64,000 bases of DNA from Candidatus Latescibacterota bacterium (lineage in GTDB: Bacteria > Latescibacterota > UBA2968), in NCBI GenBank assembly GCA_965205975.1, contig OZ242195.1, positions 2,656,001 to 2,720,000 of the forward strand, given 5' to 3'. Of this stretch, positions 1-15,856 are shown one piece after another (position 1 is the first letter of the stretch; every line of letters begins with the position of its first letter). The notes under the pieces are model-generated. The model had not been told where the DNA came from. It searched no databases and saw only the letters and a program-made list of their open reading frames with translations. Made by a program: the position numbers and the translations under genes.

Positions 1-1079
1 GCTTTTAATACAACAACAATTCGCTCTGCGGTGTTGCCATCCCACAACTCGGGTAAGCGGCCAGATTTATAATGTCCGTTCAAAACAGATTCAGCCTCTG
101 CAACAATGCGTTCAGGACAAACACCCACAAGTGTGTTCGTCCCAATATCTATAGTCTCTGGGCGTTCTGTATTCTCTCTAAGCGTCAAACACGGCACACC
201 CAAAGACGTCGTCTCTTCTTGCAATCCTCCAGAATCTGTCATCACAAATTTTGCATTCTTCTGAAGTTTCAAAGAATCGAGATAGCCAACGGGATCCATA
301 AGTTTGACATTATCCATCATCTCAAGCCCTTGCAAAAAACCGAATTGAGATAGGCGATTGCGCGTTCTCGGATGCAAAGGCCACGCGATTGGACATTTGA
401 GAACTTGCAACGCGGATAAAATGCCAGCCAACGTATCTGGACAATCGACATTTGAGGCGCGATGGAGGGTTAGAAAAACGTACTCTTGAACTGATAAACC
501 GTGTATATCCAGAATGCTGGATTCATCAGCTTTGGGAGATAGCAACACAAGGGAATCGATCATCACATTGCCCACAAAATGAATGCGGTGATCTTCTATG
601 CCTTCGCGCCTCAGATTTTCACATGCCTGCTTCGAGGGTGCAAATAACAGATCGCTTATGGCATCCACAACGAGCCGATTGATCTCTTCGGGCATTGAAC
701 GGTCCCAACTTCGCAACCCTGCCTCTATGTGCCCAACGGGGATTTGCAATTTTGCGGCATCCATCGCACATGCCAAAGTGGAATTTACATCCCCAACCAC
801 AAGAACCCAATTCGGCCTTTCTTGAAGTAAAACCTCCTCAAATCCCATCATGATCTGCGCTGTCTGGTAAGCGTGACTGCCCGACCCCACATTTAATTCA
901 TAATGTGGCCTGGGAAGATTTAAGTCTCGAAAAAAAATCTCGGACATAAAATCGTCGTAGTGCTGTCCCGTATGCACCAGAATCGGATCAAACACATCGG
1001 GCGTCTTGACAAGTTGATACCACAGCGGAGCAACTTTCATAAAATTCGGCCGTGCACCTGCAACAAGAATAATTTTCAC
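1..1079 (-). CDS. wecB: UDP-N-acetylglucosamine 2-epimerase (non-hydrolysing); 3' end runs off the window
   Basis: Not in the ORF track; read manually from GTG at 1079 (RBS GAAGGAG upstream): VKIILVAGARPNFMK...HTGQHYD...VGDVNST...HIEAGLRS...PEEINR...TLHR...TDSGGLQEE...TLRENTERPET, all hallmark WecB motifs. Confidence 0.95.
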   Translation of the reverse strand, partial: MKIILVAGARPNFMKVAPLWYQLVKTPDVFDPILVHTGQHYDDFMSEIFFRDLNLPRPHYELNVGSGSHAYQTAQIMMGFEEVLLQERPNWVLVVGDVNSTLACAMDAAKLQIPVGHIEAGLRSWDRSMPEEINRLVVDAISDLLFAPSKQACENLRREGIEDHRIHFVGNVMIDSLVLLSPKADESSILDIHGLSVQEYVFLTLHRASNVDCPDTLAGILSALQVLKCPIAWPLHPRTRNRLSQFGFLQGLEMMDNVKLMDPVGYLDSLKLQKNAKFVMTDSGGLQEETTSLGVPCLTLRENTERPETIDIGTNTLVGVCPERIVAEAESVLNGHYKSGRLPELWDGNTAERIVVVLK

Positions 1080-1092
1080 CTGCCTACTCCTT

Positions 1093-1872
1093 CTATTTCG
1101 GAGTTTCCACCTGCCAAATCGGATACCGTATATCTGCCCGCTGCATCTCTCGTTGCAACCATTGATTAAACAGAAGCTTTCGGATCTCCTTTGCTATCCG
1201 CCCGTCCAGCATTGTCGGATAGAGTTCCTGTAATAAATACAGCGCAAAGCCTTTCGATACTTTTTCTGGACCAAAAATTTCACCTATCGAAGCGGCAAAC
1301 ACGCGCGCAGCAATCCCCTTTGGCAACTGCTTCCGCCGAACACGACCCAAAAAGCCACTACCTGATCGCGTGTGTGCATCTTGAGAAAACCGACGCGCCA
1401 TCGCGTGAAAATCTGCACCTTCTTCCCGTATCTGCAAATCAACCTCGTCGATCACATCCTTATCCATGTGAAAAATCCAGCAAATCTCCGCCTCATCAAA
1501 TTCCAGCGTGTGCTGTGCAAAATAGGATTCGACCTGCCCCTCGGCGATCTTCTCAGACAGCAAATACTCCAGTCGCCTCACCTCGGCATCTTCTGCCACA
1601 TCCTGAAGTGTAATACCCCGCTTTGCAAGATAGGCTTCTGTATCTTCTACCCGCTCCAAACGATGTTGATACCGCCAGTCATTCACCTTGCGCTGGATAT
1701 CCTCCGGCGCTGCACAAACACCCTCGCGTCGGGCGAGTTGGCGTATCAATTCTCTACGCGCAAATTCATTAAAAAAATGCAGATTATCAGCAACACCCAA
1801 TTGTCGCACGACATGGTGCAACGACACCTCGACATCATTGACCTGAACCAGTATAGCATCCTCTGACATCAC
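1093..1872 (-). CDS. PpiC/parvulin-type peptidyl-prolyl isomerase (SurA/PrsA-like) associated with a peptidase ABC exporter
   Basis: Rotamase motif ADFHAMARRFSQD...GSGFLGRV...IFGPEK...GF after a helical N-domain; no signal peptide; overlaps the HlyD stop (ATGA coupling). Confidence 0.8.
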   Translation of the reverse strand: MMSEDAILVQVNDVEVSLHHVVRQLGVADNLHFFNEFARRELIRQLARREGVCAAPEDIQRKVNDWRYQHRLERVEDTEAYLAKRGITLQDVAEDAEVRRLEYLLSEKIAEGQVESYFAQHTLEFDEAEICWIFHMDKDVIDEVDLQIREEGADFHAMARRFSQDAHTRSGSGFLGRVRRKQLPKGIAARVFAASIGEIFGPEKVSKGFALYLLQELYPTMLDGRIAKEIRKLLFNQWLQREMQRADIRYPIWQVETPK

Positions 1873-3254
1873 AACGCCCCCTCTTGCACATCGTATCTCG
1901 CCGACTCGTAAAGCTGTCGCAAAGGAGAAAGCAACATCAGCAAAACCGATTGCCGATCGGTCATAATCTCCGCCGTACCCTTCATGCCGAACATCAAAGG
2001 CTTGTCATATCCCTTCACACGCATCGTATTTTCTTCCAGTTCAACAACGCACTTAAATAGCGGTCCAATACGTTCATCAATCACCGCATCAGGTGAGATG
2101 TATATAAGCCACCCGCGTTTGATGCCAAAATCCTGAAAGGCATAAGCATCGTATTTCAGCTTGACCAACTGCCCGGGCTTGAGCAAACCCACATCTTTAT
2201 TCAACACCATCACCTCTGCAACCATCGGTGCCGAGGTCGGTGCCAGCGCAATTAGAGCCTGCCCCTTGTTGATCACCTGTCCCATCGCATTCACCATCAC
2301 CTGTGTGACAATGCCCGACTCAGGTGCTAAGATCAAATCCGACTCAGCTTCAAGGGTCCGATCAATGCGTTTGCGTGCCTGTTCCAATCGCAACTGTGCA
2401 GTCTCATAAGCGTGTCGCATCTGCGATGCCTCCCGCTCGTGTGCAATACGCGCCTCTGTGATTTGACGCTTGAGATCAGCCACAGCCATTTCATTCTTGT
2501 ATATCTCCGACATGCGCGATGGAAGCGCGGATAGAGCACTCAAATACTGCACACGCGCGCGATTCATAGCCGCCCGGCTGATCAACTCGCGCTCAAACAG
2601 CGTCTTTTGCTGCAAAAACTCCCCTTTCATAAGGTCAATCTCAGCCTGTCGAAATCCAATCTGCGCTTGCAATCCCGCATCAGATGTTTTGCTTTTCGAT
2701 CCGACACCATCCCCCACATCACTGTGATAATCTTCCAATGCATCCTGGTGCGCCTCCATAAACTGCTGCAAAACAGACAGGCGTTGCTCCAATACCCCTA
2801 TCGTCTCTCGATTTAACCTCGCCCTTTGTGGCAACACCGTCTTGAGATCGTACTCTGCCTTTTGAAAAGCCATCTTTGCCTGCTCCCATTCCCGCAACTC
2901 TCCCCAGGTCTCCCACGATTTGAGCTTAAACAATACCTCACCCTTCTCGACATGATCTCCCTCTTTCACGCCAATCAACTCAATCTCACCACCTCGCTGT
3001 GCCTGCATCGTCTTCACCTGTCCGAGGGGCACCAACCGAAAAGGGGCTGATGCCACCACATCCACCTCGCCCCACCACGCCCAGGTAATGGCAACAATCA
3101 CAAATAGCAGGACAATATAGAGCAATGCACGACCCCAAAAGGGCCGCAAGGATCCCATAAACGCATGCACCTCTTCTGCCGCGTCATCTTGTCCCTGAAT
3201 GATACCGGGAGACATTGTTTCTGCTGGTGTCTCCAAAAACCGTTCTGCCATCAT
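1869..3254 (-). CDS. HlyD-family type I secretion membrane fusion protein
   Basis: N-terminal TM helix, lipoyl-like motif GVKEGDHVEKGEVLF, long coiled coil, APESGIV and GMKGTAEI motifs. Confidence 0.93.
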   Translation of the reverse strand: MMAERFLETPAETMSPGIIQGQDDAAEEVHAFMGSLRPFWGRALLYIVLLFVIVAITWAWWGEVDVVASAPFRLVPLGQVKTMQAQRGGEIELIGVKEGDHVEKGEVLFKLKSWETWGELREWEQAKMAFQKAEYDLKTVLPQRARLNRETIGVLEQRLSVLQQFMEAHQDALEDYHSDVGDGVGSKSKTSDAGLQAQIGFRQAEIDLMKGEFLQQKTLFERELISRAAMNRARVQYLSALSALPSRMSEIYKNEMAVADLKRQITEARIAHEREASQMRHAYETAQLRLEQARKRIDRTLEAESDLILAPESGIVTQVMVNAMGQVINKGQALIALAPTSAPMVAEVMVLNKDVGLLKPGQLVKLKYDAYAFQDFGIKRGWLIYISPDAVIDERIGPLFKCVVELEENTMRVKGYDKPLMFGMKGTAEIMTDRQSVLLMLLSPLRQLYESARYDVQEGAL

Positions 3255-6200
3255 ACCACCTGCAACTGTTGACTACACATGTGATAGTACAAACCCTCTT
3301 GCACCATCAACTCATCGTGTGTGCCCATCTCCACAATATGACCCTTGTCCAGCACCACAATCGCATCCGCATCGCGCACCGTACTCAACCGATGGGCGAT
3401 AATCAATGCCGTGCGATCATCTAAAAACAGATCTAAATTCGCCTGAATCACCTGTTCCGAATCCGTATCTAAGGCATTGGTCGCCTCATCAAAAATCAAA
3501 ATTTTCGGATCGCAATACAGCGCCCGTGCAATCGCAATCCGCTGCCGTTGTCCACCAGACAGCCCCACACCCTGCTCACCCACCTTTGTCTCATAGCCCA
3601 AAGGCATATCGCTCACGAAATCGTGGACACACGATAGCTTTGCCACTTCCAAAATGCGGTCCATGTCCGCATCTGACTGACCAATAGCGATATTTTCTGC
3701 AATCGTGCCAGAGAACAAAAACGGCTCCTGCATCACCATACCCACCTGTCGCCGCAACCAATGAGGGTCCAGATCCCGCACATCCATACCATCTAAGGTC
3801 ACGCGCCCTTCTGACGGATCAAATAAACGAGGTACCAGCTTGACCAACGTGGTTTTACCCGCGCCACTACGTCCCACAACCGCAACTTTTTGACCCGGCT
3901 CAAGAATCAGATCAATGTTATTCAACACATACGGTTCATCAGAACCGACACCATATCTAAAAAATACCCCCTCAAAAACCACGCGCCCTTCCAAATGCTT
4001 TAAGATCAAACCCTGACCCTGTTGCCGCGCATCCTCCATCTGCGTGTCATACACATCATTCAGCCGATCCAGAGCAATACGCGCTTCTTGCACCTGCGGC
4101 CATATCCCAATCAAGCCCATAATCGGTCCCATCACATTGCCAATCAGCGCATTAAACGCCATCAACTGTCCAACCGACAGATTACCTGCAATCACCAGGG
4201 AAGCACCATACCACAAAATCACCGTACTGCTCAACAAATTGATCACGCTTCCGATCCCCCCAAACAGCATCTGCATTTTTAACCGTTGAAAGCCAATCTG
4301 CATTTCCTTTGTGAACTTACCTTCCCAATGCCACCGTGTCGCGCGCTCAACCGCCTCGGCTTTGACCACATCAATGCCGTGTAGCGAATCAATCAAAACC
4401 GATGATTGTTCGGCACGCGCCAGAAAAGCGCGCTGGCTGAAAGCCTTCAAAATGGGTGTGTAAATCAGCGTGAGACCTATAGAAAGCGGCACAAATATCA
4501 GCATCACCAGCGTCAGTTCGGCATTGTAATAAAACATCAGACCCAGATAGACAAAGAGCATGATAAAATCCAGAACCGCAGAAACCGTCGCACCCGTCAA
4601 CAAACGCTGAATCGTTGCATTCTCCCGAAACCGCGTGGTCAAATCTCCCGTGCGCCTGAGAGCAAAAAACCGCATGGACAGCGCCAATAAATGCCGATAA
4701 AAACGCGACAACATCGCAATGCTCAACCGCGCACTTACATATCCGATTAAATAGACGCGCAACGTTGATGTGCCCATCTGGAACAACGCAACCACGACCA
4801 TCCCTACCAGCATCAAATTCAACAAATCCTCGTCGTGATGCACTAAGACCTGATCGATAATCGTCTGCATAAAAATAGGCGATGCCAGACCGAACAAACT
4901 GAGCACTAAAGACGCTAATAGTACCTCAATCAAAATGCCCCTATAAGGCCGGATCAATGGAAAAAACCGCTTAAAAGAAGACTGGGACGGTTCGTTCTCT
5001 GCCACCTGATCCGTGTATTCCAACAACAGCGCCATGTTCGTCCACCCCTTCTCAAACTCTGCCCGCGACAGCTTGCGAATGCCCACACCTGGATCTGCTA
5101 TCTTCACCTCCCTTTTATTTATCTGATACAAGACCACAAAATGATTGCCTTCCCAGTGAAGAATGGCTGGCAATTCTGTCCGCATCAGAGCTTCATACCC
5201 CGTGCGCACACCGCGCGTGACAAAACCTATGGTTTCCGCAGCCTCGGCCAAAGCCGCCATCGACGTGCCAGAACGCGACACATTGGACATATCGCGCAGC
5301 CTGTTCAACCCAATAGGCATCTTGTAATACTTACAGATCATGCCCAAACACGCCGCGCCACAATCCGATTGATCGTGTTGCTTCAAGAATGGGAAGCGAA
5401 ACCAAGTGGATGGTTTTGCACCGTCTATTCTGATATTAACCACATTGGATGCTGTATTGGATACCGTGTCTTCTTGGATAACAGATTGCTCAACCGGTGT
5501 GGCCTCTTGATACCCCGATGGGGACAGGGCTTGCCGATCATCCCGTGCCTGTCTAAACCCTGCTCCATTCGTTCGCTGTTCTCCGCGCGATATGCGGCCT
5601 GCCTCCAACGCAGCCTCAAATCCCGGTATCATAGCTTTTAACTTATTAAAATCGCTTTTATCTATGTAAAAAAGCACACTATCACGCCGAGTGCGAATGA
5701 TCGTTTCGTCATCTCTACCATCGCCAAAATAATCCCCCGGGCGTAGAATCACCGTATTCCCATTTTCCAACACCGCCTCCAACTGACCGCTGCCAATCAA
5801 ATAAAATCGCTGTCCGAATTGCCCTTGATCAACAACGGTCACACCCTCCTCAACCGCCTCGCGCTTTAGCCGCGCGAACAACACCCGCATCGCCTCGCCC
5901 GGAACATCCCCTTTCAAAAACCGCGTAAAATCCCGATACGCAATACAGGCAACCTGCTCTTCAAGATATGCCCTTACATCAGAACTTTTTCTCACAGCCT
6001 TAAAAAATTCATCCTTCGGCACCTGCAACATCTCCGCATCCTCAACCGCTCGCACCGTTGCCCGATGCCCCTGCCTGCTCAACAGTGCCCCTTCGCCAAA
6101 ATGATCACCCGCATACAAATAGCCCACGGTCATCGAATTGCCATTCCCATCCTGCTTCATCACCCGCAACCGTCCAGACTGCACAATGTAAAACGCCTCA

Positions 6201-6295
6201 CCTTCTTGCCCCTGTTGAAAAACAACACCTCCAAAGGGAAAGTGAACAGATTGTGACCGCACCGAGTTTTTAATGAAAAAATGCGAAAGATTCAT
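3251..6295 (-). CDS. Peptidase-containing ABC transporter: two cNMP-binding domains + C39 peptidase + TMD + NBD
   Basis: cNMP motifs (FYIVQSGRL..GDHFGEGAL..RATVRA; FYLIGSGQL..GDYFG); C39 with intact Cys/His/Asp (QSDCGAACL, HWEGNHFVV, IADP); Walker A GRSGAGKT, LSGGQ, DEAT. Start set at ATG 6295 (GGAG RBS). Confidence 0.95.
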   Translation of the reverse strand: MNLSHFFIKNSVRSQSVHFPFGGVVFQQGQEGEAFYIVQSGRLRVMKQDGNGNSMTVGYLYAGDHFGEGALLSRQGHRATVRAVEDAEMLQVPKDEFFKAVRKSSDVRAYLEEQVACIAYRDFTRFLKGDVPGEAMRVLFARLKREAVEEGVTVVDQGQFGQRFYLIGSGQLEAVLENGNTVILRPGDYFGDGRDDETIIRTRRDSVLFYIDKSDFNKLKAMIPGFEAALEAGRISRGEQRTNGAGFRQARDDRQALSPSGYQEATPVEQSVIQEDTVSNTASNVVNIRIDGAKPSTWFRFPFLKQHDQSDCGAACLGMICKYYKMPIGLNRLRDMSNVSRSGTSMAALAEAAETIGFVTRGVRTGYEALMRTELPAILHWEGNHFVVLYQINKREVKIADPGVGIRKLSRAEFEKGWTNMALLLEYTDQVAENEPSQSSFKRFFPLIRPYRGILIEVLLASLVLSLFGLASPIFMQTIIDQVLVHHDEDLLNLMLVGMVVVALFQMGTSTLRVYLIGYVSARLSIAMLSRFYRHLLALSMRFFALRRTGDLTTRFRENATIQRLLTGATVSAVLDFIMLFVYLGLMFYYNAELTLVMLIFVPLSIGLTLIYTPILKAFSQRAFLARAEQSSVLIDSLHGIDVVKAEAVERATRWHWEGKFTKEMQIGFQRLKMQMLFGGIGSVINLLSSTVILWYGASLVIAGNLSVGQLMAFNALIGNVMGPIMGLIGIWPQVQEARIALDRLNDVYDTQMEDARQQGQGLILKHLEGRVVFEGVFFRYGVGSDEPYVLNNIDLILEPGQKVAVVGRSGAGKTTLVKLVPRLFDPSEGRVTLDGMDVRDLDPHWLRRQVGMVMQEPFLFSGTIAENIAIGQSDADMDRILEVAKLSCVHDFVSDMPLGYETKVGEQGVGLSGGQRQRIAIARALYCDPKILIFDEATNALDTDSEQVIQANLDLFLDDRTALIIAHRLSTVRDADAIVVLDKGHIVEMGTHDELMVQEGLYYHMCSQQLQVV

Positions 6296-6336
6296 TTTTC
6301 TAATTACTCCATTATGTGGATGAGCGCATATCCATC

Positions 6337-7200
6337 TCAATTATCGCATACCGGAGTTTCCTCAAGCTCAACCTCCGCCTCACGGTGATCTGTTTCTTCG
6401 CGCTTTGCCAACTGATAAAACCACCACAACCCAAGAACAGCCAATATTGGTCCGCACACATTCAACCACCACGGATTGTGAACCACAACATTAAAATCTT
6501 CTGAAACTGGAAAACCCGGTACATCGAAATGCAGAAATGTTGTAGCCAGAAAATTGTTCAGAGCGTGTCCCCAAATTGCAGGCCATAAAGACCCCGCTTG
6601 GATGACCCAATAGGCAAAGACAAGCCCTAATACAAAAGCCCCTGGAAATTGCCACGGATTCAAATGTATTAGACCAAATAAAATTGCCGACCACATAATC
6701 GCCCGATTTTGAGTACCATGTGCCAATAAACCTTTCAAGATAATGCCTCTAAAAACGACCTCTTCAATAAAAGGTGCTATCACAACTGCGCCCAATAAGG
6801 CTGACAGATAAGATGTTTTTTTGCCGAAAGATTGATGAAAGATGTCCTGAAATATATCTGGCATTGGCAAAACAGATATAACCGCATTGTACAATTCAGA
6901 AAGAACAACCCCCAGTCCAAAGATAGATAATCCAACGGAAAGCCACATGCGCCAGTCATAGTCTATATTTCTAATCGCAAGAGGCAACATATCTTTCCAG
7001 GTTCGACCCGTTCGATGCGAAATATAGCACAAAATCAGAATAAATTTTACCAACGACAAAAGCCAGAAAGAGTAATCATACTCAAACAAAGGTTTGTCAA
7101 TAATGGCACCTATAATGTCAATCAATATGGTCAAACCAAATGCGATGAGGATATATAATACCAGCAGCCAAACAGACTGTTTCAGATTTGGATACGTCAT
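6337..7200 (-). CDS. CPBP (CAAX/Abi) intramembrane glutamic endopeptidase, possible immunity or processing protein
   Basis: Multi-TM protein with EEVVFRG, FGLIH and GHALNN motifs. Confidence 0.92.
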   Translation of the reverse strand: MTYPNLKQSVWLLVLYILIAFGLTILIDIIGAIIDKPLFEYDYSFWLLSLVKFILILCYISHRTGRTWKDMLPLAIRNIDYDWRMWLSVGLSIFGLGVVLSELYNAVISVLPMPDIFQDIFHQSFGKKTSYLSALLGAVVIAPFIEEVVFRGIILKGLLAHGTQNRAIMWSAILFGLIHLNPWQFPGAFVLGLVFAYWVIQAGSLWPAIWGHALNNFLATTFLHFDVPGFPVSEDFNVVVHNPWWLNVCGPILAVLGLWWFYQLAKREETDHREAEVELEETPVCDN

Positions 7201-7300
7201 CTCTTTCCTTCTTGATAACTGATGTTACGCAGTGGTGAGTTGATTTTTTGTTCAAAGTATGGACAAAAAATCTAATAAGCTGTTTTAAAATTATTGAGAG

Positions 7301-7660
7301 TTAAAAAGTTTCGCGCTTCGCCACCTGAAAAAACCACCACAACCCAATCACAGCCAATAGTACCGCACACACATCTACCCACCACGGCAAAAAGATCAAA
7401 GCTTCTGAAATTTTCCCAAAGCCCGGTATTCCTGATCGTGCCAAGGTAACGGCCAAAAAACTGTTCAGTGCGTTTCCCAAAAGACAAGGCAACAAAGACC
7501 CCGTTTGAATAAACCACCATGCGAATACAAGTCCAAATGTGAAGGCCAGGGGAAATTGCCACGGATTCAGATAAGATAAAAAAAATAAAATTGTCGACAA
7601 AATAGCGGCCTGAGACTTTGAGCAACAGACCAATAAACCACCTAAAATAATGCCTCGGAT
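7301..7660 (-). pseudogene. C-terminal fragment of a second CPBP paralogue, truncated at the IS3 end
   Basis: RGIILGGLL...YLNPWQFP.AF..GLVFAWW.IQTGSL.P...GNALNS parallels the 6337-7200 protein; both catalytic His are replaced (H>Y, H>N); the N-terminal half is absent. Confidence 0.82.
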
Positions 7661-7701
7661 CTGTAACCCAAAATTTGAACCAGTTAGTAGGCTAATTTAC
7701 G

Positions 7702-8610
7702 CTAAGGGTCAGTCGTGATATTTCTCATAAGAATGGCCTGCACCACTTCTTGTGGCGTCTGGTAGCCCAAGGCAGAATGCCTTCGATCTTGATTGTAATA
7801 CGTCATTTGTTGCCCAATCACACAAATCAGTTCTGTCAAAGCGTCTGCGTGCATAATCAACGTTTTGTTTTCGGTCTTAAAACGTCCCCAAAAGGACTCT
7901 ATCCACGGATTATCTTTTGCCCCATTCATCGCAAAAGAAATCCCTGCACCTTCTCTTATCAATACACGGTGTAACCAGTCGTATGAGGTGTAAACCGAAT
8001 CGCGGTCGTGATGAATGAGGATGTCAGACAGTCTCCTGTCCAAACAGCTCAGGTTGTTTTGCAACTGGTCCAGACAGTATATCGCCAGGGCACGGTTGCG
8101 ATGTGCGCCTACGCCAAAGCCTGCGATCCACCTTGTCTGGATGTCCAAAAAGGCCATTAACCACGCTTTTTTCTGTCCTTGGCAATAGAACAATTCTGTA
8201 AAGTCGGTGCAAAAGACACGCAAGGGATCAATGGTGCGGTTCTGGACTAAATTAGCGTCTTGTCCGACTTGGCTTATCAGCTTCAATACCGGATTCTTGC
8301 CGCGTTTTGGCAGATGACGAGGTAAGTCTAACTCATAAGTTGACAATAGCTTACGCAACCGCTTATGATTGATCACGATGCCAGTACGGGCTTTTATATC
8401 TTCCTTGATGCGACGATACCCATAATCAGGATGATGCCTGATCGTCGTGATGATCTCATCCTTTATCTGGGCATCTTCACCCGAACAAGAGGCCCGACCG
8501 CGACGATAGGCAAGCGTCCCTTTCGACAAGCATAGGGCACGGCAGCACATATTTAGACCATACCTGTCTTTATGCCTCTCGACCAGTTCTACTTTGTCTG
8601 ACACGCTCAA
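7702..8610 (-). CDS. IS3 transposase OrfB (rve DDE domain)
   Basis: YGYRRI HTH_21 motif, CTDFTE, HHDRDSVY, DNPWIESFWGRFKTE, YYNQDRRHSALGY. Confidence 0.93.
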   Translation of the reverse strand: MSVSDKVELVERHKDRYGLNMCCRALCLSKGTLAYRRGRASCSGEDAQIKDEIITTIRHHPDYGYRRIKEDIKARTGIVINHKRLRKLLSTYELDLPRHLPKRGKNPVLKLISQVGQDANLVQNRTIDPLRVFCTDFTELFYCQGQKKAWLMAFLDIQTRWIAGFGVGAHRNRALAIYCLDQLQNNLSCLDRRLSDILIHHDRDSVYTSYDWLHRVLIREGAGISFAMNGAKDNPWIESFWGRFKTENKTLIMHADALTELICVIGQQMTYYNQDRRHSALGYQTPQEVVQAILMRNITTDP

Positions 8611-8891
8611 CGGTTGCCTAAAAAATTTTTGAGCAGAGCCAGTTCGACTTCTTTCTGACCTAACAGGCGCTCCAGATCAGACACACGCGCTTCATACGTC
8701 TTGACCGTATCGTTGCCAGAGAAAATCTCTGCACCACTGTCTATAAACTGACGCTTCCAATTTGATAGACTCACCGGGTGCACATCGTAAGCGCGAGCGA
8801 TTTCTGCATCCTCTTTGTCTGAGGTCAGTGCTTCTAACACGATCTGGAACTTGAGTTTAGCCGAGTAGGACTTCTTGGTTTTCTTACCCAT
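8607..8891 (-). CDS. IS3 transposase OrfA (HTH)
   Basis: YSAKLKFQIVLE..IARAYDVHP..LSNWKRQF followed by a leucine zipper; GGAG RBS. Confidence 0.92.
   Translation of the reverse strand: MGKKTKKSYSAKLKFQIVLEALTSDKEDAEIARAYDVHPVSLSNWKRQFIDSGAEIFSGNDTVKTYEARVSDLERLLGQKEVELALLKNFLGNR
8619..8625 (-). promoter_or_regulatory. Programmed -1 ribosomal frameshift heptamer T TTT TTA joining OrfA and OrfB
   Basis: OrfA ends AAT TTT TTA GGC AAC CGT TGA; a -1 shift gives TTT AGG CAA CCG TTG AGC GTG, in frame with OrfB. Confidence 0.7.
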
Positions 8892-9138
8892 GGTATCTCC
8901 TCCTGTTGGTGAGAAAATACCACGATGATACTCAATGTCAATTAGCCTTTATACCGGGTCAACTTTTGGGGCGCACCTCAAAACGTTACAATCAGGCATT
9001 TTTAGATTATCTATGATGGTGTTCTTCTGAGGATACAGCGATAGCTTCTGGTAGTATATAGGGAACCTGGTTTTGATGGATGATCTTGAATCCATTTGTC
9101 ATTTTTCACTGAAACTATAAAAATACTCACCTGTTCCT

Positions 9139-9696
9139 CTACTCCTCTTTTTTTTGAAATATTTGAGCTATACCAAAAGCTGTAGGATGTCCTATAACGA
9201 TACATTCTCTATTAAATTTTCTTAGTTTTATAAGATCTGAGATATCTTTAGCACTAATTGCGAGCGCAAAACTCAATATATTGGCGGACCAATAAGATAA
9301 AGAAAGGCAAAAAAGTACTATACAAATACTGCCAGTAGTGATGAGAGGGGTAATTAATGCTTTTCTTTGACAACCTACTGAAACAGGGACCTTACATGCA
9401 CAAAATAGCACTAACCAGTATATATAAAATCCGAAATAGATATTATCTCGATCAATTTTTCCCAATTTGTGGTAAGCGACAAAATGAGAGAGTTCATGTA
9501 TAACTAAGATAATAAGAGCTGCAAGAATCATTGTTAAATAATCATCTTCCCATTGGACCTGAATCTTTTGTTCCTCCAAAAAGGAAAGTATCGACAAAAG
9601 AAAAATTAGCATGCTTGAATAAATGAGAACAGATGTGCCCCAAAGAACAATCAGGTTTGTTTTTATTTCGCCAACTTTATGTAGTACTTTTTTCAT
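9139..9696 (-). CDS. Membrane HExxH metalloprotease-like protein (DUF3267/zincin-like)
   Basis: TM helices with VIHELSH, followed by ALITPL and a D-containing late helix (SAKDISD); AT-rich gene. Start at ATG 9696; the track starts at 9747. Confidence 0.65.
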   Translation of the reverse strand: MKKVLHKVGEIKTNLIVLWGTSVLIYSSMLIFLLSILSFLEEQKIQVQWEDDYLTMILAALIILVIHELSHFVAYHKLGKIDRDNIYFGFYIYWLVLFCACKVPVSVGCQRKALITPLITTGSICIVLFCLSLSYWSANILSFALAISAKDISDLIKLRKFNRECIVIGHPTAFGIAQIFQKKEE

Positions 9697-9884
9697 ATAT
9701 AACTCAAGTTGTGTGGTATAGCGTAGCCATACTATAGGCCAAGACAAAGAAGCCCTTGCTGGTAACTTCAGGTTGTGGACACAGCGTTTTCGGGTGTGAA
9801 TCTGCTGTCTCCAATTTACATTGGAGCCTCTACTATTTCAACTAAGATAGGGACAATACCCAGAATAAGATGAAAGTAGAGAGA

Positions 9885-9920
9885 GTCGATGTCAAACCAC
9901 ATATGTAATTTGACATCGAC
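9885..9920 (-). terminator. Stem-loop downstream of the precursor genes (terminator, attenuator or mRNA stabiliser)
   Basis: Perfect 12-bp IR GTCGATGTCAAA / TTTGACATCGAC, 15 nt after the stop at 9936; pyrimidine-rich tail on the minus strand. Confidence 0.65.
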
Positions 9921-9935
9921 AAACAGTACTACAGA

Positions 9936-10307
9936 TTAATCAATAAGATCACTAACAAAATCTACGGCCGCATCCACACCTGCTTTAATCTCTTCCTTCC
10001 AGGTACCAGCAGCTACAGCTACAGCTGCAATTGCAGTTATAATAGGTGCTGCCCCTCCTCCTCCTGGCCCTGCGTTGTTTATTGTTGTGGTTGTGCTGTT
10101 GATAGTAACCATAACAGGTGGAGGCAGGAATTCAGATAGGAGCTCAACCAAAGGATTTGGTCCCAGGGGGACAACCATACGACCACCACCTACAACGTCT
10201 TGCATTTTCGGCAAATCCAACAACTTGTGTTTTACCTGCAATTTCGTACAGGTAACAAATCCTTCATCCGGATTCGTGATAATTCGATCAGTCTGTGTTT
10301 GAGTCAT
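9936..10307 (-). CDS. Putative precursor peptide C (41-aa double-glycine leader + 82-aa core)
   Basis: GGGAGG RBS; leader ends L(-12)..M(-7)..V(-4)VGG; shares RII.xP...VTC..L with precursors A and B. Confidence 0.75.
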   Translation of the reverse strand: MTQTQTDRIITNPDEGFVTCTKLQVKHKLLDLPKMQDVVGGGRMVVPLGPNPLVELLSEFLPPPVMVTINSTTTTINNAGPGGGGAAPIITAIAAVAVAAGTWKEEIKAGVDAAVDFVSDLID

Positions 10308-10414
10308 GATATCCTCCCAAAATAAATGAAGCAGAATTTATAACAAACTTTTCCACCTAAACTGGCCAACATATTCACTTTGCCAAATACTTATCGGGTT
10401 CTGAACTGTATTGG

Positions 10415-10633
10415 TCAGGGAAAAGGGTTAAAGATATCTTCCAAAATATCGTCCAAAATATCGTCCAGCGTCGGGTCAAAATCCTCACTGGTATCATCAC
10501 CTGGGACCGGGAAACATCCATCGGTACCAGAGATCCGAGCAATTTCAAGCCTATTCAAATCACTCGTTTTAATCGGCAGATTGGTCACACCTGTGACCGA
10601 TTGCTCAGGAATTGATATAATTCGTCTCGCCAT
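10415..10633 (-). CDS. Putative precursor peptide B (37-aa leader ending GT + 35-aa acidic core)
   Basis: AAGGAGGTG RBS; leader L(-12) E(-8) I(-7) I(-4) G(-2) T(-1); core DGCFPVPGDD...LDDILDDILEDIFNPFP. Confidence 0.78.
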   Translation of the reverse strand: MARRIISIPEQSVTGVTNLPIKTSDLNRLEIARISGTDGCFPVPGDDTSEDFDPTLDDILDDILEDIFNPFP

Positions 10634-10721
10634 TCTTCCTCACCTCCTTTCTTTACTGCCTCAGCGCAAATCGCTGAAATGTCGAATTTTGCGAAACGTT
10701 CTGTGGATCGTGGCACGATTC

Positions 10722-10946
10722 CTACCAAGAATCCCACCATTCACTCACTGTATCTTCGACATAATCCACCGCATCTTCGATATAATCAATAATATCTTCA
10801 AAGAGCTCAAGTGGATCTTCTCCTGGCAAAATGCATCCTCCTGCTGCATTCGCCATCTCACCATGTGCCAGTTCTATTTCTTGACCGGGGAGTTGAACAC
10901 AGGTCACAGAAACTTGTGCTGGCATTGATGTAATGCGCTTCGTCAT
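10722..10946 (-). CDS. Putative precursor peptide A (37-aa double-glycine leader + 37-aa acidic core)
   Basis: AAGGAGGTG RBS; leader ends ELAHGEMANAAGG; core CILPGEDPLELFEDIIDYIEDAVDYVEDTVSEWWDSW. Confidence 0.82.
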   Translation of the reverse strand: MTKRITSMPAQVSVTCVQLPGQEIELAHGEMANAAGGCILPGEDPLELFEDIIDYIEDAVDYVEDTVSEWWDSW

Positions 10947-11000
10947 TTTCTCGCACCTCCTTTCTTTTCCACCTCAACATAAGCCATATCCCTTCGCCAA

Positions 11001-12404
11001 TCAGGGAGCCGTGAGCATATCGCTGAAGTGTCGGATTTTGCGAAGCGTTTTGTGGGCTGTCGCGCGCGTTTCACATAAACCCAACAGGACGGCTTCGACT
11101 TCGTTTGGGTGTAAATGTTGCATCAAGTGAAGGCCCAGGCCTTCAATAAGGGACATATCTTGTCCCAAAAACGAAATGCGCGGCAATGGGCCTTGCACGC
11201 TTCCCAAATAGTTAAATCCCTTAGACACACTTTGCGGCACACCAGATACATCACAACCCTGTGTAAAACTCACGGTTATTGGTATCGGGCAGGCGGGTGC
11301 ATCGCGTTTGATCCGCAAATTTTCAAACAGTGCCATGTGCTGCTGCGCCGTGTGATCCCAGGAAAATTCGAGCGCGCGTTTGCGAGCACCCTCTCCCAAT
11401 TTCTCCCGCTCCGTTTTGCTATTCAACAAATCGCGTACAACATCTGAAATCACCTCAGGAGCGATATAACCCGTCACATTCAATGGCTCATCTTCAAACC
11501 GCTCAATCTCTATCAACCGCCCACAACTACCCAACAACTCTGGCGCACCCGCAAAATTTGTCGCCACAACCGGAAGACCACACGCCATGCCCTCTATCAC
11601 AGTTGAAGGACACGACTCATACGAATACACCGACAACGCGCACAACACATCCAGCATATTGTAATACAGCGGCATATCCGTATAGGGTTGCGCGCCCAAA
11701 AATATCACATTGGGCGAATGTGTCACAGGTGCGAACTGCTTGCCAATCACCGCAAACAACACATTGGGATTCAGATCGGCCATTCGCAAAAACGGATACG
11801 CACCCTTGCCCGGCTCAAACCGCCCACAAAAACCCACCACAGGCATCTCCAAAAAGCGTTGATCACCCGTCTTATCCGCGACCTCTTTGCGCGCTTGCAA
11901 CTTATCCATCGGCACAAACACCTCGGCATCTACCCCATTGGTAATAGGGCGCAAATACGATCGGTCAAACACCAGCTTGCCCACTTCCTCAGCGACATAC
12001 GCCGACTTGGGGGACAAAGCATCATAAGGCCGCAACAGCGAATAACATTGAAGCACCTTATCCATAAAATCGCGATTGCGTCCAAAAGAACACGACAGCC
12101 GAATCACAATGGGCGCGGGACACACATGGCGGAAAAATGCCAGGTCATCTACCCTGGGTTCAAACATCAGCACACCATCAAAATCCTGCCGCACAAACCA
12201 CTGGCGCGACGTATCAATCGTCTCAAATGCGGGTTGAATACCGTGCATATTCGGACCATAATCCACCGCTTCAGACGCTGGCATATACACCTCGCAATAC
12301 TTCGATAACGCCTGCACATGGTTAAAACCCGAAAGGGACGCCCCGCTATTCGACGCCATCACTTTCTCGCAGTCGTGATACGGGTGTGACACATAAATTT
12401 TCAT
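11001..12404 (-). CDS. GT4 glycosyltransferase with a ~95-aa C-terminal extension
   Basis: ITNGVD, GFCGRFEPGKG, E-x7-E motif ESCPSTVIEGMACGLPVV, FSWD; extra domain after the GT-B fold. Confidence 0.9.
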   Translation of the reverse strand: MKIYVSHPYHDCEKVMASNSGASLSGFNHVQALSKYCEVYMPASEAVDYGPNMHGIQPAFETIDTSRQWFVRQDFDGVLMFEPRVDDLAFFRHVCPAPIVIRLSCSFGRNRDFMDKVLQCYSLLRPYDALSPKSAYVAEEVGKLVFDRSYLRPITNGVDAEVFVPMDKLQARKEVADKTGDQRFLEMPVVGFCGRFEPGKGAYPFLRMADLNPNVLFAVIGKQFAPVTHSPNVIFLGAQPYTDMPLYYNMLDVLCALSVYSYESCPSTVIEGMACGLPVVATNFAGAPELLGSCGRLIEIERFEDEPLNVTGYIAPEVISDVVRDLLNSKTEREKLGEGARKRALEFSWDHTAQQHMALFENLRIKRDAPACPIPITVSFTQGCDVSGVPQSVSKGFNYLGSVQGPLPRISFLGQDMSLIEGLGLHLMQHLHPNEVEAVLLGLCETRATAHKTLRKIRHFSDMLTAP

Positions 12405-12416
12405 CTTTCACCTCAT

Positions 12417-14969
12417 TTAGACTGATTCTATAAACTTTCGCGTTTGCTCGGCACCATCCATGGACAGATGGTGTTCGGACACAGAACTTTCGAGCATTTC
12501 GGCAATAGCTTTTGCCATCTTTCCCGTACCTATTTGATCGGGGTGTATCACCCCTGCAATACCCAACGCCATCAACTGCTGCGCGCGAAATTCCTGATCA
12601 TCCATTGCAATACTCGGCACCAGAATCGACGGGGCCTGTGTCTCGAGCACATTCATACACGTATTGTAGCCCGCCCGGCTAATCGATAAATCCGCGTGTT
12701 TCATCCACGCCAAAAAATTGGACGTAAAGCGCTCAAGGCGAAACGGACCATCACCGCATAACGCGCGCAAAGCCTCAAAATGCGTTTCATCGATAAACGC
12801 ACCGGCAAAAATCACCATCTCGCGTCCATCGTGCGCAACGTCCTGCTCCAATTGTTTCCACGCTTCAATACAAGGTGCAATAAGCGCAAGCCCCTCAGCC
12901 CCGCCACCAGCACTGACCAACACATACCGATCAGGCGCAGGATCAGGTCGAGATACGTCCTCGAGTTTCTCAGAGATAAACCCCGTATAAACCACGGGAA
13001 TATCGATATCACCAGTCCAGGGAAAGTGATCTTCCAGCCGGGACAATTTGGAATCGCCATGCACCAATACCGCATCGAAATACTGATTCAACACGGGCAC
13101 GACCTCCTCGTAATACTGCCGATTAAAAGCCAAATACTCGTGATGTATCCCGCCAAAAGGCACCGAATAAAACCGCATCGCATCTCCATCGCGTCTCTGG
13201 GTAAGCGGAAAAGTCAGTTGCAACGCATCGCTTTTTGCCCGCGTTGGAATATCGCGCAGTGAACACAGCACCTTCGCGTCGGGATTGACCTCATTGAGCC
13301 TGACAATGGTATTGAGGATCTCGTTCTTGAGCGACCATCGGGAAAAGGGAAAAAACTCAACACAAAACACATCGGGACGAATCTGCTCCATCACGTCGGC
13401 AAGCTGTGTCTGGCGCTCGCGCATAACAGCCTGCAAATCGCGCTCCTTATCAACAGACTCAATACCCTGCGCACCCGTGCGAAGCGGCGGCAGAGGAATA
13501 CGTACCACTCCTTCATCGAGATCAGCTTCGGGAATTGGTCGCCCGCCATCGATAAAAAACACATCGCATGTCTTCACCAGTTCATTGACAATCTGTCGAT
13601 TGCGAAAATGGTGCCCAACGCCAATGAGGTGCTGGCTGTAAAATGCAACGCGTGTGCGGGTTTTTGCTTGTTGATTAATACATTCCATACGGGCAGGACA
13701 AACGGCTATCGCGGCCTCATAGATCCCGCGATAGCGTTCCACAACCTGCCTCCATGTGTGCTCTGACCGCACCCATTCGTTGCCCCCTTGCCCCAATTGC
13801 ATCCGCAGCGAGGGATTCTCGATGAGTTCGGCACACGTCTGGGTGAGACTTTCGACATCATCTGCCACAAAAACGCGCCCGGTTTCGCCGTCTGTAACCA
13901 CCTCCTTGAGTGCGGCTACATCGCTAACGACAACGGCTTTTTCCATCGCCATTGCCTCATAAGGCTTCATCGGCGTGACCAGTTCGGTAACGCGGCTACG
14001 CGTACGCGGAATAACAAAAACATCTAACATCGCGTAATATGCAGCTATTTGGTCGTGCGGTATTTCACCCGTAAAAATCGCCACATCCGCCAGACCGCGT
14101 TCCTGTGCTTCGCGCTGCAATGCTGGCAGGTCTCGTCCACCCCCCACAATCAACACTTTGAGATTGGCATACTGCCCGCGAAGAACCTCACACGCCTGCA
14201 ACAACAACCGCAATCCCTCCAGTGACCGCACCAGACCGATATAGCCCACCACCACATCTTCCGGTTCAATCCCCAGATCATTGGCAAGTTCGCCTGACCG
14301 ATTTTTGGGTGCATATTGCTCAACCGCCACACCATTGGGCACTACGCCAATTTTCTCTTCGTCAACCCCCTCGCGTATGCATTCTGCTTTCAACACCTCG
14401 GACAGCGTCACCACAGCATCGGCTCGTTGCATCGCATTGACATGTTGCGCGTGTTGCTGGCGATACACCTCTGAATCGGGAGCCAGCATACCCTGCGCCA
14501 CACCGCTATCGTGCCACAAACCCCGCACCTCGTACACCACAGACAGACCACAGTGATGTCCTATATCAATCGCAACCTGTGCATTTCTACCCGGTGACGC
14601 CGCGTGCAACACATCGGGTTTTTCTGTCTCAACAGCCCGCGCAACGCGTTTGCGAAAGTGTTGCTCCTGCCCCACACGATAGATTCGTGGGGTATCTGGC
14701 AATTGAAATTTGCCCAGACGTTCGGACAGACGTGCTGTGTATGCTTCAGAAGTATTTCTCAAATAAGGCACATCATTGATATATTCAATATCATCAGCGA
14801 GTTGCTCAGACACACCCCAGCGCGTGAGCACCACAGGATCAAAGCCGAGCGCTTTCTGCGTATTGATGATATACTGGCTTCGCAAACTGTAGCCGCTTTG
14901 TCGGTGTGGCAGCGAAACATCCAGAATATGTAATATCTTCATCGGCATAGGATTTTCAAATTGTCTCAT
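12417..14969 (-). CDS. Fused two-module glycosyltransferase: N-terminal GT4 + C-terminal GT28/COG4671-like
   Basis: N-half KILHILD.SLP..SGY..R, YEVRGLW, VPNGV, PMKPYEAMA; C-half FYSQHLIGVGH, EFFPFSR, VSAGGGAEG, SISRAGYNT. Confidence 0.88.
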   Translation of the reverse strand: MRQFENPMPMKILHILDVSLPHRQSGYSLRSQYIINTQKALGFDPVVLTRWGVSEQLADDIEYINDVPYLRNTSEAYTARLSERLGKFQLPDTPRIYRVGQEQHFRKRVARAVETEKPDVLHAASPGRNAQVAIDIGHHCGLSVVYEVRGLWHDSGVAQGMLAPDSEVYRQQHAQHVNAMQRADAVVTLSEVLKAECIREGVDEEKIGVVPNGVAVEQYAPKNRSGELANDLGIEPEDVVVGYIGLVRSLEGLRLLLQACEVLRGQYANLKVLIVGGGRDLPALQREAQERGLADVAIFTGEIPHDQIAAYYAMLDVFVIPRTRSRVTELVTPMKPYEAMAMEKAVVVSDVAALKEVVTDGETGRVFVADDVESLTQTCAELIENPSLRMQLGQGGNEWVRSEHTWRQVVERYRGIYEAAIAVCPARMECINQQAKTRTRVAFYSQHLIGVGHHFRNRQIVNELVKTCDVFFIDGGRPIPEADLDEGVVRIPLPPLRTGAQGIESVDKERDLQAVMRERQTQLADVMEQIRPDVFCVEFFPFSRWSLKNEILNTIVRLNEVNPDAKVLCSLRDIPTRAKSDALQLTFPLTQRRDGDAMRFYSVPFGGIHHEYLAFNRQYYEEVVPVLNQYFDAVLVHGDSKLSRLEDHFPWTGDIDIPVVYTGFISEKLEDVSRPDPAPDRYVLVSAGGGAEGLALIAPCIEAWKQLEQDVAHDGREMVIFAGAFIDETHFEALRALCGDGPFRLERFTSNFLAWMKHADLSISRAGYNTCMNVLETQAPSILVPSIAMDDQEFRAQQLMALGIAGVIHPDQIGTGKMAKAIAEMLESSVSEHHLSMDGAEQTRKFIESV

Positions 14970-14999
14970 GTCTTTCCAGTACTTTTAAGACCTATTCTT

Positions 15000-15410
15000 T
15001 TATGAATTTTTTTGAATAAGGCTTTCGCATCTCACTTTTGCGCGGTAAGCGGTAAGAGACATGTCATTTACCTTCTTAAACACCTCACAAAAATACTTTG
15101 AGGACCGATACCCACACGCACTTGCAACCTCATAGGTCAGCAAGGATTGTTCACCTATCAAGTGCTGTGCATGAGCAATTCTGATCTCTCTCAACTTTTC
15201 TCGGAAAGGCTTGCCAACATGCTTTTTGAACAAGGCACTCAGATGCGTTCTGGAAAGTTTGAAATGATCTACGAGATCACTAAATTTGAGGTCCGGGTTG
15301 CTGTAATGCGCCTCCAAAAAGGCTTCAAACGCGATTTTCCAACTCGAATCTGATGGGATATGGGTTTTGACCTTCGCCAAAAACTTGCTCCTTTCAACTA
15401 CACTATTCAA
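15000..15410 (-). CDS. AraC-family regulator consisting of the HTH domain only
   Basis: LSRTHLSALFKKHVGK...RIAHAQHLI...EVASACGY....YFCEVFKK...S..AYR. Confidence 0.88.
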   Translation of the reverse strand: MNSVVERSKFLAKVKTHIPSDSSWKIAFEAFLEAHYSNPDLKFSDLVDHFKLSRTHLSALFKKHVGKPFREKLREIRIAHAQHLIGEQSLLTYEVASACGYRSSKYFCEVFKKVNDMSLTAYRAKVRCESLIQKNS

Positions 15411-15612
15411 ACAGATATTTCACAGCTTAAACAAATATGTGCAATATGTGTGCCAATGTGAATTTCTCAAGTAATAATGATCATAAAGTATTGTTTTTAT
15501 TTCGTATAAAAATTATTATCGAGCAAAAGACAGGTTGAATACCGAATTAAAAAGTGAAAACACCATTCACTTTTCTCTTTTCGATTGAACATTATTTGCA
15601 CTTTAATTCGCG

Positions 15613-15641
15613 TTGACAATCGCGTTCCGGATTGTTATTTT
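15613..15641 (+). promoter_or_regulatory. Sigma70-like promoter
   Basis: TTGACA (15613-15618), 17-bp spacer, TG-N-TATTTT (15636-15641), in an AT-rich intergenic region. Confidence 0.6.
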
Positions 15642-15645
15642 TTAC

Positions 15646-15722
15646 ATCCTTCTCAAGTTCTCAGCTTGAGATATTTACCTGCCGCTGACAGTTGACTTGC
15701 CCGGTCTTGTCGGCGGCTTTTT
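15646..15722 (+). ncRNA. Candidate small RNA or attenuator leader
   Basis: Follows the promoter; hairpin TCTCAAG/CTTGAGA, then GC stem GCCGCTGACA/TGTCGGCGGC + TTTTT. Confidence 0.4.
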
Positions 15723-15856
15723 CATACAACAATAATGATAATACCAACTCTTCTGTCGCTGCAACAAAAAAAGATTCCACTTATGTCTTATCTGACCTCT
15801 TTATGTCTTATTTTTGGTATTTTTTTTCGAAATGTTGTTTTTTATTTAACTCCTGA

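Follow-up and report, generated by a model that had tools for sequence, protein, structure and literature searches.

The DNA considered here is a stretch of 64,000 nucleotides from a Candidatus Latescibacterota bacterium (assembly GCA_965205975.1, contig OZ242195.1, positions 2,656,001 to 2,720,000), called the window below, with positions counted from its first letter. It carries on its minus strand three small neighbouring genes, pepA, pepB and pepC, which, judged by their sequences, are paralogues within a lineage-restricted family of double-glycine peptides. Each precursor has a leader, in which an upstream box is followed by a helix that ends at the cut site, and a core. Neighbouring genes encode two glycosyltransferases (GTs; GT467 and GT850), a peptidase-containing ABC transporter (PCAT) with a C39 domain, a HlyD-type membrane-fusion protein and a SurA-like protein of peptidyl-prolyl isomerase (PPIase) type. 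In our estimate the chances are about even that this surrounding operon produces the peptides, probably glycosylates them, and cuts and exports them, and that the leader carries two signals. A more specific proposal, to which we give somewhat less than even weight, is that they form a class of ribosomal glycopeptides. In this class a GT4 enzyme with its own leader-binding domain would read the first half of the box and place a sugar on Cys+1 and/or on a conserved Ser in cores that are otherwise unrelated, and the second half, together with the G-G helix, would be read by a PCAT with cNMP-type domains and a SurA-like chaperone. Both views build on what the analysis establishes about the genes and the family to which they belong, about linkage between genes, and about folds and patterns of conservation.

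The leader family and its distribution

The three open reading frames (ORFs) agree exactly, in coordinates, strand and leader sequences, with an original prediction that had been made for this DNA from its letters. The prediction that they share a leader is borne out above chance: in pairwise BLASTP comparisons pepA matches pepB with E=1e-7 (19/53 residues identical) and pepC with E=2e-4 (18/56), the pair of pepB and pepC gives 0.014, and a profile of the three peptides finds five more copies in the same genome, i.e. eight at three places. In an alignment of 36 leaders, confined to the leader itself, L-19, L-12 and G-2 do not vary, and R-34 and P-18 hardly do. The corresponding leader-only profile gave 61 matches among 1.84 billion representative proteins. 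Fifty-three of the 55 matched sequences that were read have 54-147 amino acids (aa) and begin, or nearly begin, with the leader; the repeat proteins P0072 and P0124 are taken as false hits, and three further long, multi-stretch matches lie outside the 55 sequences read.

The 13 loci retrieved from the species collection are all titled as metagenome-assembled genomes of Latescibacterota or Latescibacteria. Within the phylum the leader-only profile detects the leader in 40 of 168 genomes, with 22/30 in family f1 and 17/22 in family f2, both of one Latescibacterota order, and in 0/115 genomes of twelve other families. Homologous leaders do occur near PCATs elsewhere, the opposite of what the original prediction had named as its refutation: 35 of 41 relatives have the N-terminus of the exporter (two cNMP domains and C39), in most cases within a few kb of leader genes, and a C39 exporter is encoded near the leader genes in 12 of the 13 related loci. 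No description of this leader family surfaced in the literature, in a non-exhaustive search with supplements outside its scope.

If the three ORFs were chance open frames or decayed remnants of genes, this would agree with the finding that pepA, pepB and pepC match no Pfam and no NCBIfam family (NCBIfam at E<=1, the curated Nif11/NHLP leader models included), as well as with a 182-aa ORF on the opposite strand (10380-10928, plus strand), antisense to pepA and pepB. We give this explanation practically no credence, as it is already contradicted by the conservation data. The gene pepA, used as query, matched 66 database clusters, one of which is the window's own protein; the other 65 are mostly full-length matches, core included, with 52-84% identity, and pepC has an orthologue cluster (P0089) of 121 aa. 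The pooled dN/dS ratio of 16 pepA-type genes, which are related and not independent, so that the figures are descriptive and not a test, is 0.31 in the upstream box and 0.41 in the helix, with 0.25 over the seven residues that open the core and 0.56 over the tail. All three pep genes have a strong Shine-Dalgarno site, GGAGG, at 10-14 nt 5' of the ATG, and the place beside GT467 and the exporter is conserved. Furthermore, contigs from RNA libraries of two studies (coral and sponge) cover the region in relatives: they carry relatives of GT467 and parts of GT850 at 88-99% identity, those of run X1 also cover the pepA region, and some reach from the 3' end of GT467 into the start of a peptide gene. 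Such contigs are no proof of transcription and are used as a hint, and the parts that they leave uncovered carry no meaning. Because the conserved frames lie on the minus strand, the antisense ORF is taken as spurious.

The presence of a C39-type recognition helix in the leaders, which had also been predicted, is supported by the invariant L-12 and G-2 and by the C39 exporter in the operon. At positions -12, -8 and -7 the residues are L, E and M in pepA, L, E and I in pepB, and L, K and M in pepC; the pepA pattern L(-12)-x3-E(-8)-M(-7), followed by G-G, agrees with the consensus L(-12)-x3-E(-8)-L(-7) given for ComA (PMC6363468). Position -1 is occupied by G in 22 of the 36 leaders, by L in 10, by A in 3 and by T in 1, and for the ten that end in G-L the true cut position is uncertain. 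The cut site of pepB was correctly described as G-T, as against G-G in pepA and pepC. Relatives of pepB end in G-A or G-G, pepB being the sole copy seen with Thr at -1, a single-base change from the Ala of a paralogue. By analogy, a residue other than Gly at this position need not block processing, because glycocin precursors with G-S|G, and with G-K-G in Hyp1, are recorded (PMC6405829). The suggestion that C39 cleavage can do without the upstream box is likewise reasonable by analogy, since LahT150 is described as cleaving substrates that retain just the last 13-14 leader residues (PMC6363468).

As to the cores, divergence holds across the family as a whole, where several unrelated types occur: very acidic cores, cores with a hydrophobic stretch and an acidic helix, Gly/Ala-rich cores with a C-x-C-x-C end, and Ser/Thr/Gly-rich cores. 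For pepA, pepB and pepC themselves the divergence had been overstated, their cores being partly paralogous. The three-way alignment has invariant columns past the cut site (P41, G42, E47, I56, D61 and D65), the similarity runs for about 15 residues beyond that site, via the P-G-[ED]-[DN] region, and pepA and pepC have an acidic helix segment in common (second BLASTP segment, E=0.032). Among relatives the core of pepA is itself conserved, at 50-84%. The pepA core has Cys as its first residue and a tail of the V-S-E-W-W type; in pepC a Gly/Ala-rich hydrophobic middle is followed by an acidic C-terminal helix with D-F-V-S-D. A conserved leader with a variable core had been put forward as the signature of RiPPs, peptides made by the ribosome and modified after translation; this combination is equally the rule for unmodified double-glycine bacteriocins and so does not by itself mark a RiPP.

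GT467 and the two halves of the box

The GT467 family is narrow: ~46 clusters with lengths of 466-467 aa reach down to 46% identity, and below that the matches fall sharply to generic GT4 enzymes. The AF2 model of the full-length protein (pLDDT 91.6) has a GT4/GT-B fold, and its top Foldseek matches are MshA, in first place with E=1.4e-19, GlgM and BshA. The protein continues into an extra C-terminal domain, in which DSSP places strands at residues 377-384, 390-397 and 415-417 and helices at 419-428, 433-443 and 447-465; the block pLDDT of this region in the full-length model is 67-94. The order strand-strand-strand-helix-helix-helix is the definition of RiPP recognition elements (RREs) as given in PMC12710340, and it is the order found by DSSP in the C-domain of the full-length model. 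Within 41 related genomes the domain has just two settings, the C-terminus of GT467-type proteins and, in decayed form, the DNA before peptide genes. Fusions of RREs are known for glycosyltransferases of family PF00535 (PMC12710340); the literature search described above brought up no GT4 enzyme fused to a recognition element.

The linkage between GT467 and the peptides is tight. A leader ORF on the same strand follows GT467 in 34 of the 35 matches found in the 41 genomes (30 recognized by profile and 4 by eye), the sole exception being an isolated copy beside unrelated genes. Paralogues of GT467 at 69% and 53% identity also have box-bearing peptides behind them, with Ser/Thr/Gly-rich cores. 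Prediction of a complex between GT467 and pepA gave a score of 0.41 (runs 0.44, 0.41 and 0.01) against 0.00 for the best control, which is weak support; at least 26% of the contacts agree between runs and the partner pLDDT is at least 38. The mark set for this score was reached by 116/157 solved complexes and by 2/215 mismatched pairs, and scores <=0.60 were obtained with just 18 of the 157 solved complexes plus both mismatches that passed.

The box consists of a first half, R-[IV]-x-[ST]-x-P, and a second half, [VF]-[TA]-C-x-x-L-P. In the original prediction it was regarded as a possible docking site for a modifying enzyme, and genus g6 is informative on this point. Searches of 13 genomes of this genus detected no GT467 (E<=1e-30) and no copy of its C-domain (E<=1e-3), and all 13 have the exporter N-terminus, which lies within a few kb of the leader genes. 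For A-like leaders the mean pairwise identity at positions 2-11, 12-21 and 22-37 is 0.70, 0.78 and 0.66 in GT-linked loci (19 distinct leaders), against 0.43, 0.60 and 0.59 in g6 without the GT (19 distinct leaders); B-like leaders differ in the same direction, but by less. Measured against the helix, the box is relaxed in its first half where the GT is missing, the identity there falling from 0.70 to 0.43, and not in its second half. Since 14 of 15 g6 genomes keep the box in the absence of GT467, at least part of it would have another role, and from these comparisons the whole box cannot serve a glycosyltransferase alone. The second half, being kept without GT467, probably serves the exporter or a chaperone. 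The docking-site idea is supported indirectly, by the 34/35 gene linkage, the order of the C-domain, the weak complex score and the relaxed first half, and it does not extend to the whole box, given the second half kept in g6.

In two loci of a genus without GT467 (L031 and L032), which are syntenic and count as one observation, a gene for a 731-aa TMEM260-like protein (GT-C, protein O-mannosyltransferase-like; 5801-8322 in L031 and 5434-7955 in L032) lies together with a GtrA gene divergently upstream of the peptide genes.

For binding, glycosylation, the modified residues and biological activity, that is for every step from binding onward, we infer the following course. GT467 would use its extra C-terminal domain to hold the precursor by the first half of the box, and would put a sugar on the core, with Cys+1 and the Ser of D-x-V-S-[ED] as candidate sites. 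The second glycosyltransferase, GT850, may extend this sugar or modify a second site, and the SurA-like PPIase-type protein would keep the precursor export-competent. The C39 domain of the exporter would then read the C-terminal amphipathic helix (L-12, E-8, M/I-7, G-2), and probably the second half of the box too, and the exporter would cut after G-2/-1 and export the core together with HlyD. The CPBP and DUF3267 membrane proteases could provide immunity or further trimming.

Competing explanations and related systems

The main rival to glycosylation is that these are unmodified double-glycine peptides, such as class II microcins or bacteriocins, or peptides with a function in signalling or in a matrix. 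The whole box would then be an export or chaperone signal, read by the two cNMP-type domains of the exporter or by the SurA-like PPIase-type protein, and the glycosyltransferases would act on, say, lipid or polysaccharide. We regard this explanation as rather unlikely, though deserving serious attention. It accounts well for genus g6, in which the box, and above all its second half, is kept in the presence of the exporter N-terminus (13/13), with GT467 and its C-domain not found (0/13), and for the fact that the exporter, HlyD and PPIase-like genes stand beside the peptides in loci both with and without GTs. It also fits the several copies of the CPBP gene, CPBP proteins being frequent bacteriocin immunity factors, and it would explain why GT467 is matched in structure by GT4 enzymes for small molecules and glycolipids and why the N-terminal half of GT850 resembles glycosyltransferases of exopolysaccharide systems (TIGR04063, E=1.8e-99, below cutoff). 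What it leaves without explanation is the occurrence of a leader peptide gene behind GT467 in all but one case, with paralogues down to 53% identity, and the private extra domain of GT467, which apart from decayed remnants occurs nowhere else in the 41 genomes. The predicted complex of GT467 and pepA, weak as its support is, and the lower conservation of the box's first half in leaders without the GT also speak for a modified peptide, as do two features of the core that are not found where the GT is missing. One is the motif D-x-[VIAL]-S-[ED], present in 28/40 distinct cores from GT-linked loci (shuffled sequences give 1.0 on average and 5 at most) and in 0/31 cores of g6, and the other is a Cys within the first four core residues (24/40 versus 0/31); the motif and the position ranges were picked after the sequences had been seen, the counted sequences are related, and the g6 cores are shorter than those of GT-linked loci (mean 30 versus 56 residues); these contrasts are leads to candidate modification sites, not proof.

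Several further observations weigh against glycosylation by GT467. Besides the box kept in 14 of 15 g6 genomes, there is the lack of the Ser motif in pepB-type cores, and the strong acidity of the cores (D+E 20%, K+R 2.5%) is unlike that of typical cationic bacteriocins. GT4 enzymes, moreover, are mostly known from glycolipid and polysaccharide pathways, as the NCBIfam and Foldseek matches indicate. The C-domain is the other point of concern. Folded in isolation, it reached a pLDDT of 64.4 overall, with values <50 at residues 1-18 and 27-49, where the strands are, and Foldseek with this low-confidence fold found nothing at E<=0.001. The best VIA match of the isolated domain (Z 7.4) is a ribosomal protein and covers the helices only, Pfam and PDB sequence searches gave nothing beyond one chance-level hit, and a search of the ESM Atlas by features gave no usable match. 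As no RRE structure, Pfam or PDB match was found, the likeness of the modelled domain to an RRE is a likeness in the order of secondary-structure elements alone. The complex score lies in the weak band, with one of the three runs at 0.01, and no interface was reported.

The box could also be a propeptide part that keeps an acidic or hydrophobic core soluble or inactive until cleavage, as an intramolecular chaperone or inhibitor and with no docking involved. The extreme composition of the cores, either very acidic or Gly/Ala-rich and hydrophobic, would agree with such a role, as would the retention of the leader with every core type. We nevertheless consider this improbable, since one and the same box serves chemically opposite cores (acidic, hydrophobic and Ser/Gly-rich), which is a better fit to a common protein recognizer, and since a motif for specific binding is suggested by the R, L and P positions, which hardly vary.

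The system that we favour, in which the peptides are glycosylated before export, has features in common with the glycocins (sublancin, with SunA/SunS/SunT, pallidocin, glycocin F and enterocin F4-9), namely a leader of the double-glycine type, a dedicated peptide GT and a cleaving ABC exporter of the SunT type. SunS is a GT2 enzyme with a GT-A fold, whereas both GTs encoded here are of the GT-B type (PF00534, PF13692, PF04101) and not SunS-like. The known glycocin producers are, to our knowledge, Gram-positive Firmicutes, whereas the hosts here are Latescibacterota and the exporter has a HlyD partner. The residues reported to be modified in glycocins are Cys, Ser or Thr (PMC12457901). Glycocins characterized up to 2019 are described as having five Cys and two disulfides (PMC6405829), in contrast to the cores of pepA and pepB with one Cys each and that of pepC with none. 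The glycocin enzyme PalS is reported to modify leaderless cores (PMC6405829), unlike the present system, for which the leader box is proposed as the handle.

With the Nif11/NHLP systems there is agreement in the conserved leader that ends in G-G, in the unrelated cores and multiple copies, and in a PCAT with a HlyD-type partner. Nif11/NHLP leaders follow a prochlorosin-type logic (TIGR03796, TIGR03794), in which one leader is combined with many cores and its N-terminal part is for the enzyme and its end for the protease. The sequences are unrelated, however (0 NCBIfam families, E<=1), the leader is much shorter here (37-45 residues), and the enzyme is a glycosyltransferase instead of a lanthionine synthetase or a cyclodehydratase. 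The system would work like a glycocin or a prochlorosin-type double-glycine RiPP, yet by sequence it is a member of neither family, because its GT4 enzyme is not SunS-like, the cores lack the five-Cys pattern and the leader matches no curated model. Class II microcins and bacteriocins of the colicin V type are also similar, having small double-glycine precursors, a C39 ABC exporter with a membrane-fusion protein, several precursor genes per locus and membrane proteins as immunity candidates; the extra upstream box, the two GTs with a PPIase-like gene and the strongly acidic cores set the present locus apart.

Two further proteins offer partial parallels. HetC of Nostoc PCC 7120 has, like the exporter here, a cNMP-type domain followed by C39 and ABC domains. 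That domain is reported to bind ppGpp in vitro and to be needed in vivo, and the same source gives the substrate as unknown and records no leader gene near hetC (PMC10986499). The exporter of the window differs in having two cNMP-type domains and candidate substrates encoded next to it. MirC, of the PpiC-like peptide-maturation family TIGR04500, is described as a required SurA-like, PpiC-type partner or chaperone of the modifying enzyme in the rosaritide RiPP cluster, which also has a PCAT (PMC13097080), and TIGR04500 proteins have been noted near graspetide loci as well (PMC8939145). The likeness is that of a SurA-like, PpiC-type protein in a RiPP-like cluster with a PCAT. The protein encoded here scores 76.5 bits against TIGR04500 (E=2.1e-21, profile positions 87-336 of 340), where the cutoff is 180 bits, and by this comparison is a distant relative and not a member of that family. 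It also lacks the N-domain of MirC and has a recognizable parvulin domain, and its partner enzyme would be a GT and not an ATP-grasp ligase. It is probably cytoplasmic, because its sequence has no obvious signal peptide.

If the glycosylation reading is correct, peptide glycosylation in RiPPs would reach past SunS-type enzymes into the very large GT4 family, and a new leader-binding module fused to a glycosyltransferase would have been found. The compact leader of 37-45 residues might then serve, in principle, for the glycosylation and export of unrelated cores. It would also mean that one short leader is split between two machines in an uncultured phylum (we know of no cultured members of the Latescibacterota), with relatives in coral and sponge RNA libraries. 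If the peptides are unmodified, what remains is an ordinary result of use to annotation, a double-glycine leader family that is new and specific to its lineage. The multi-copy state, with three full clusters and eight precursors in the genome, points to an important secreted-peptide function in Latescibacterota. The family also offers natural substrates for a PCAT with cNMP domains, a type studied in cyanobacteria as HetC (PMC10986499).

Gene row, upstream element and cluster copies

According to Pfam and NCBIfam annotation, the three peptide genes and their neighbours form a single operon-like row on the minus strand, in the order AraC-type regulator, GT850, GT467, pepA, pepB, pepC, DUF3267, insertion sequence (IS) transposase, CPBP, exporter, HlyD, PPIase-type protein and epimerase (Table 1).

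Table 1 Positions of the peptide genes, their neighbours and the upstream elements in the window
Feature	Position	Strand	Description
AraC-type regulator	15000-15410	-	first gene of the row
GT850	12417..14969	-	GT4 domain fused to a MurG/GT28-like second glycosyltransferase half (Pfam, NCBIfam, tblastn)
GT467	11001..12404	-	GT4-type, GT-B fold; Pfam PF00534, E=1.5e-18
Extra C-terminal domain of GT467	11004-11312	-	residues ~377-465; three strands, then three helices
Conserved region before pepA	10947..11036	-	last GT467 codons, possible RNA stem (TCAGCG ... TGTTGA), Shine-Dalgarno
pepA	10722-10946	-	74 aa; 37-aa leader (10836-10946) ending G-G, 37-aa very acidic core
Same upstream element before pepB	10634..10700	-	remnant of GT467 3' end, deletion-shortened stem; repeats D1 and D2
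pepB	10415-10633	-	72 aa; 37-aa leader (10523-10633) ending G-T, acidic Pro-rich core
pepC	9936-10307	-	123 aa; 41-aa leader (10185-10307) ending G-G(-G)
DUF3267 membrane zincin-like peptidase	9139..9747	-	HExxH motif; PF11667, 1.1e-9
Inserted IS transposase	7702-8610		between DUF3267 and CPBP genes
CPBP/Rce1-like intramembrane protease	6337..7200	-	PF02517, 1.4e-21; paralogues in related loci
PCAT exporter	3251..6340	-	1029 aa; PF03412 3.2e-40, PF00027, PF00664, PF00005
HlyD-type membrane-fusion protein	1869..3254	-	TIGR01843, 217.5 bits, above cutoff
Parvulin/SurA-like PPIase-type protein	1093..1872	-	Pfam Rotamase 1.1e-11
UDP-GlcNAc 2-epimerase	3..1079	-	PF02350, 1.4e-107; cluster end, runs off window

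The counterpart of GT850 in most related loci is its second half alone, as found by tblastn. In the exporter, PF00027 matches in 2 stretches (E=2e-32), both N-terminal to PF03412, PF00664 and PF00005. The DUF3267 protein also has a weak YydH/LiaK match in NCBIfam (E=0.0098). The PPIase-type gene follows HlyD in 10 of the 13 loci, and 2 of the remaining 3 contigs stop before that point. An epimerase gene is seen at 2/3 loci of the genome itself and in locus L029. In the Pfam annotation of the cluster no gene for a thiol-disulfide oxidoreductase was identified.

The IS transposase belongs to the rve family, with 3 further copies in the genome at ~91-92% protein identity, and together with a CPBP-like fragment beside it takes up 7272-8610. 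Here orf117 occupies 7272-7625 and similarity to CPBP extends over ~7307-7867, and it is probable that a second CPBP gene was disrupted by the insertion.

The region upstream of pepA contains a conserved element whose 5' arm, TCAGCG, lies in the last GT467 codons and whose 3' arm, CGCTGA or TGTTGA (with G.U pairs), lies ~30 nt ahead of the Shine-Dalgarno site. The six closing pairs persist in 20 upstream regions, where the only changes are one-sided ones from GC to GU, and upstream of pepB the loop is deleted and the stem kept. The element is found in L004, L005, L009-L016, L019, L028, L029, L031 and L032 as well as in the window; it may be an RNA processing or stability stem. A sigma-54 promoter in this element was considered and dropped, as inspection by eye found no TGGCAC-N5-TTGC on the coding strand. 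Rfam gave no match in window positions 1-16000 at E<=1, and a scan for sigma-70 promoters and terminators in 9800-11200, with 2 promoter-like sites versus 2.7 expected and no terminator, was uninformative.

Remnants of the 3' end of GT467 lie before peptide genes that have no GT of their own: at 10666-10717 in the window (compare 11015-11066), at ~9530-9590 in L031, at 2055-2298 in L040 and at 2171576-2171883 of G009:C2; in L040 remnants of both ends of GT467 are present. Such remnants point to repeated duplication of a GT-plus-peptide unit, after which the GT copy was lost. A dispersed repeat of ~90 nt (9771-9861), situated between pepC and the gene for DUF3267, matches no Rfam family and occurs at 7 places in the genome with 91-100% identity, as well as on RNA-library contigs, where it continues into unrelated sequence.

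The whole cluster is present at three places in the genome, with 83-93% protein identity and 8 leader ORFs altogether. The two other full copies lie outside the window, at ~250-259 kb and 2799-2812 kb of the genome, and include a GT, GT467, peptides, the exporter, HlyD and the PPIase-like protein. They add further precursor types, one with a Gly/Ala-rich core that ends in C-T-C-S-C-N and one with an acidic helix and a Cys-containing C-terminal part.

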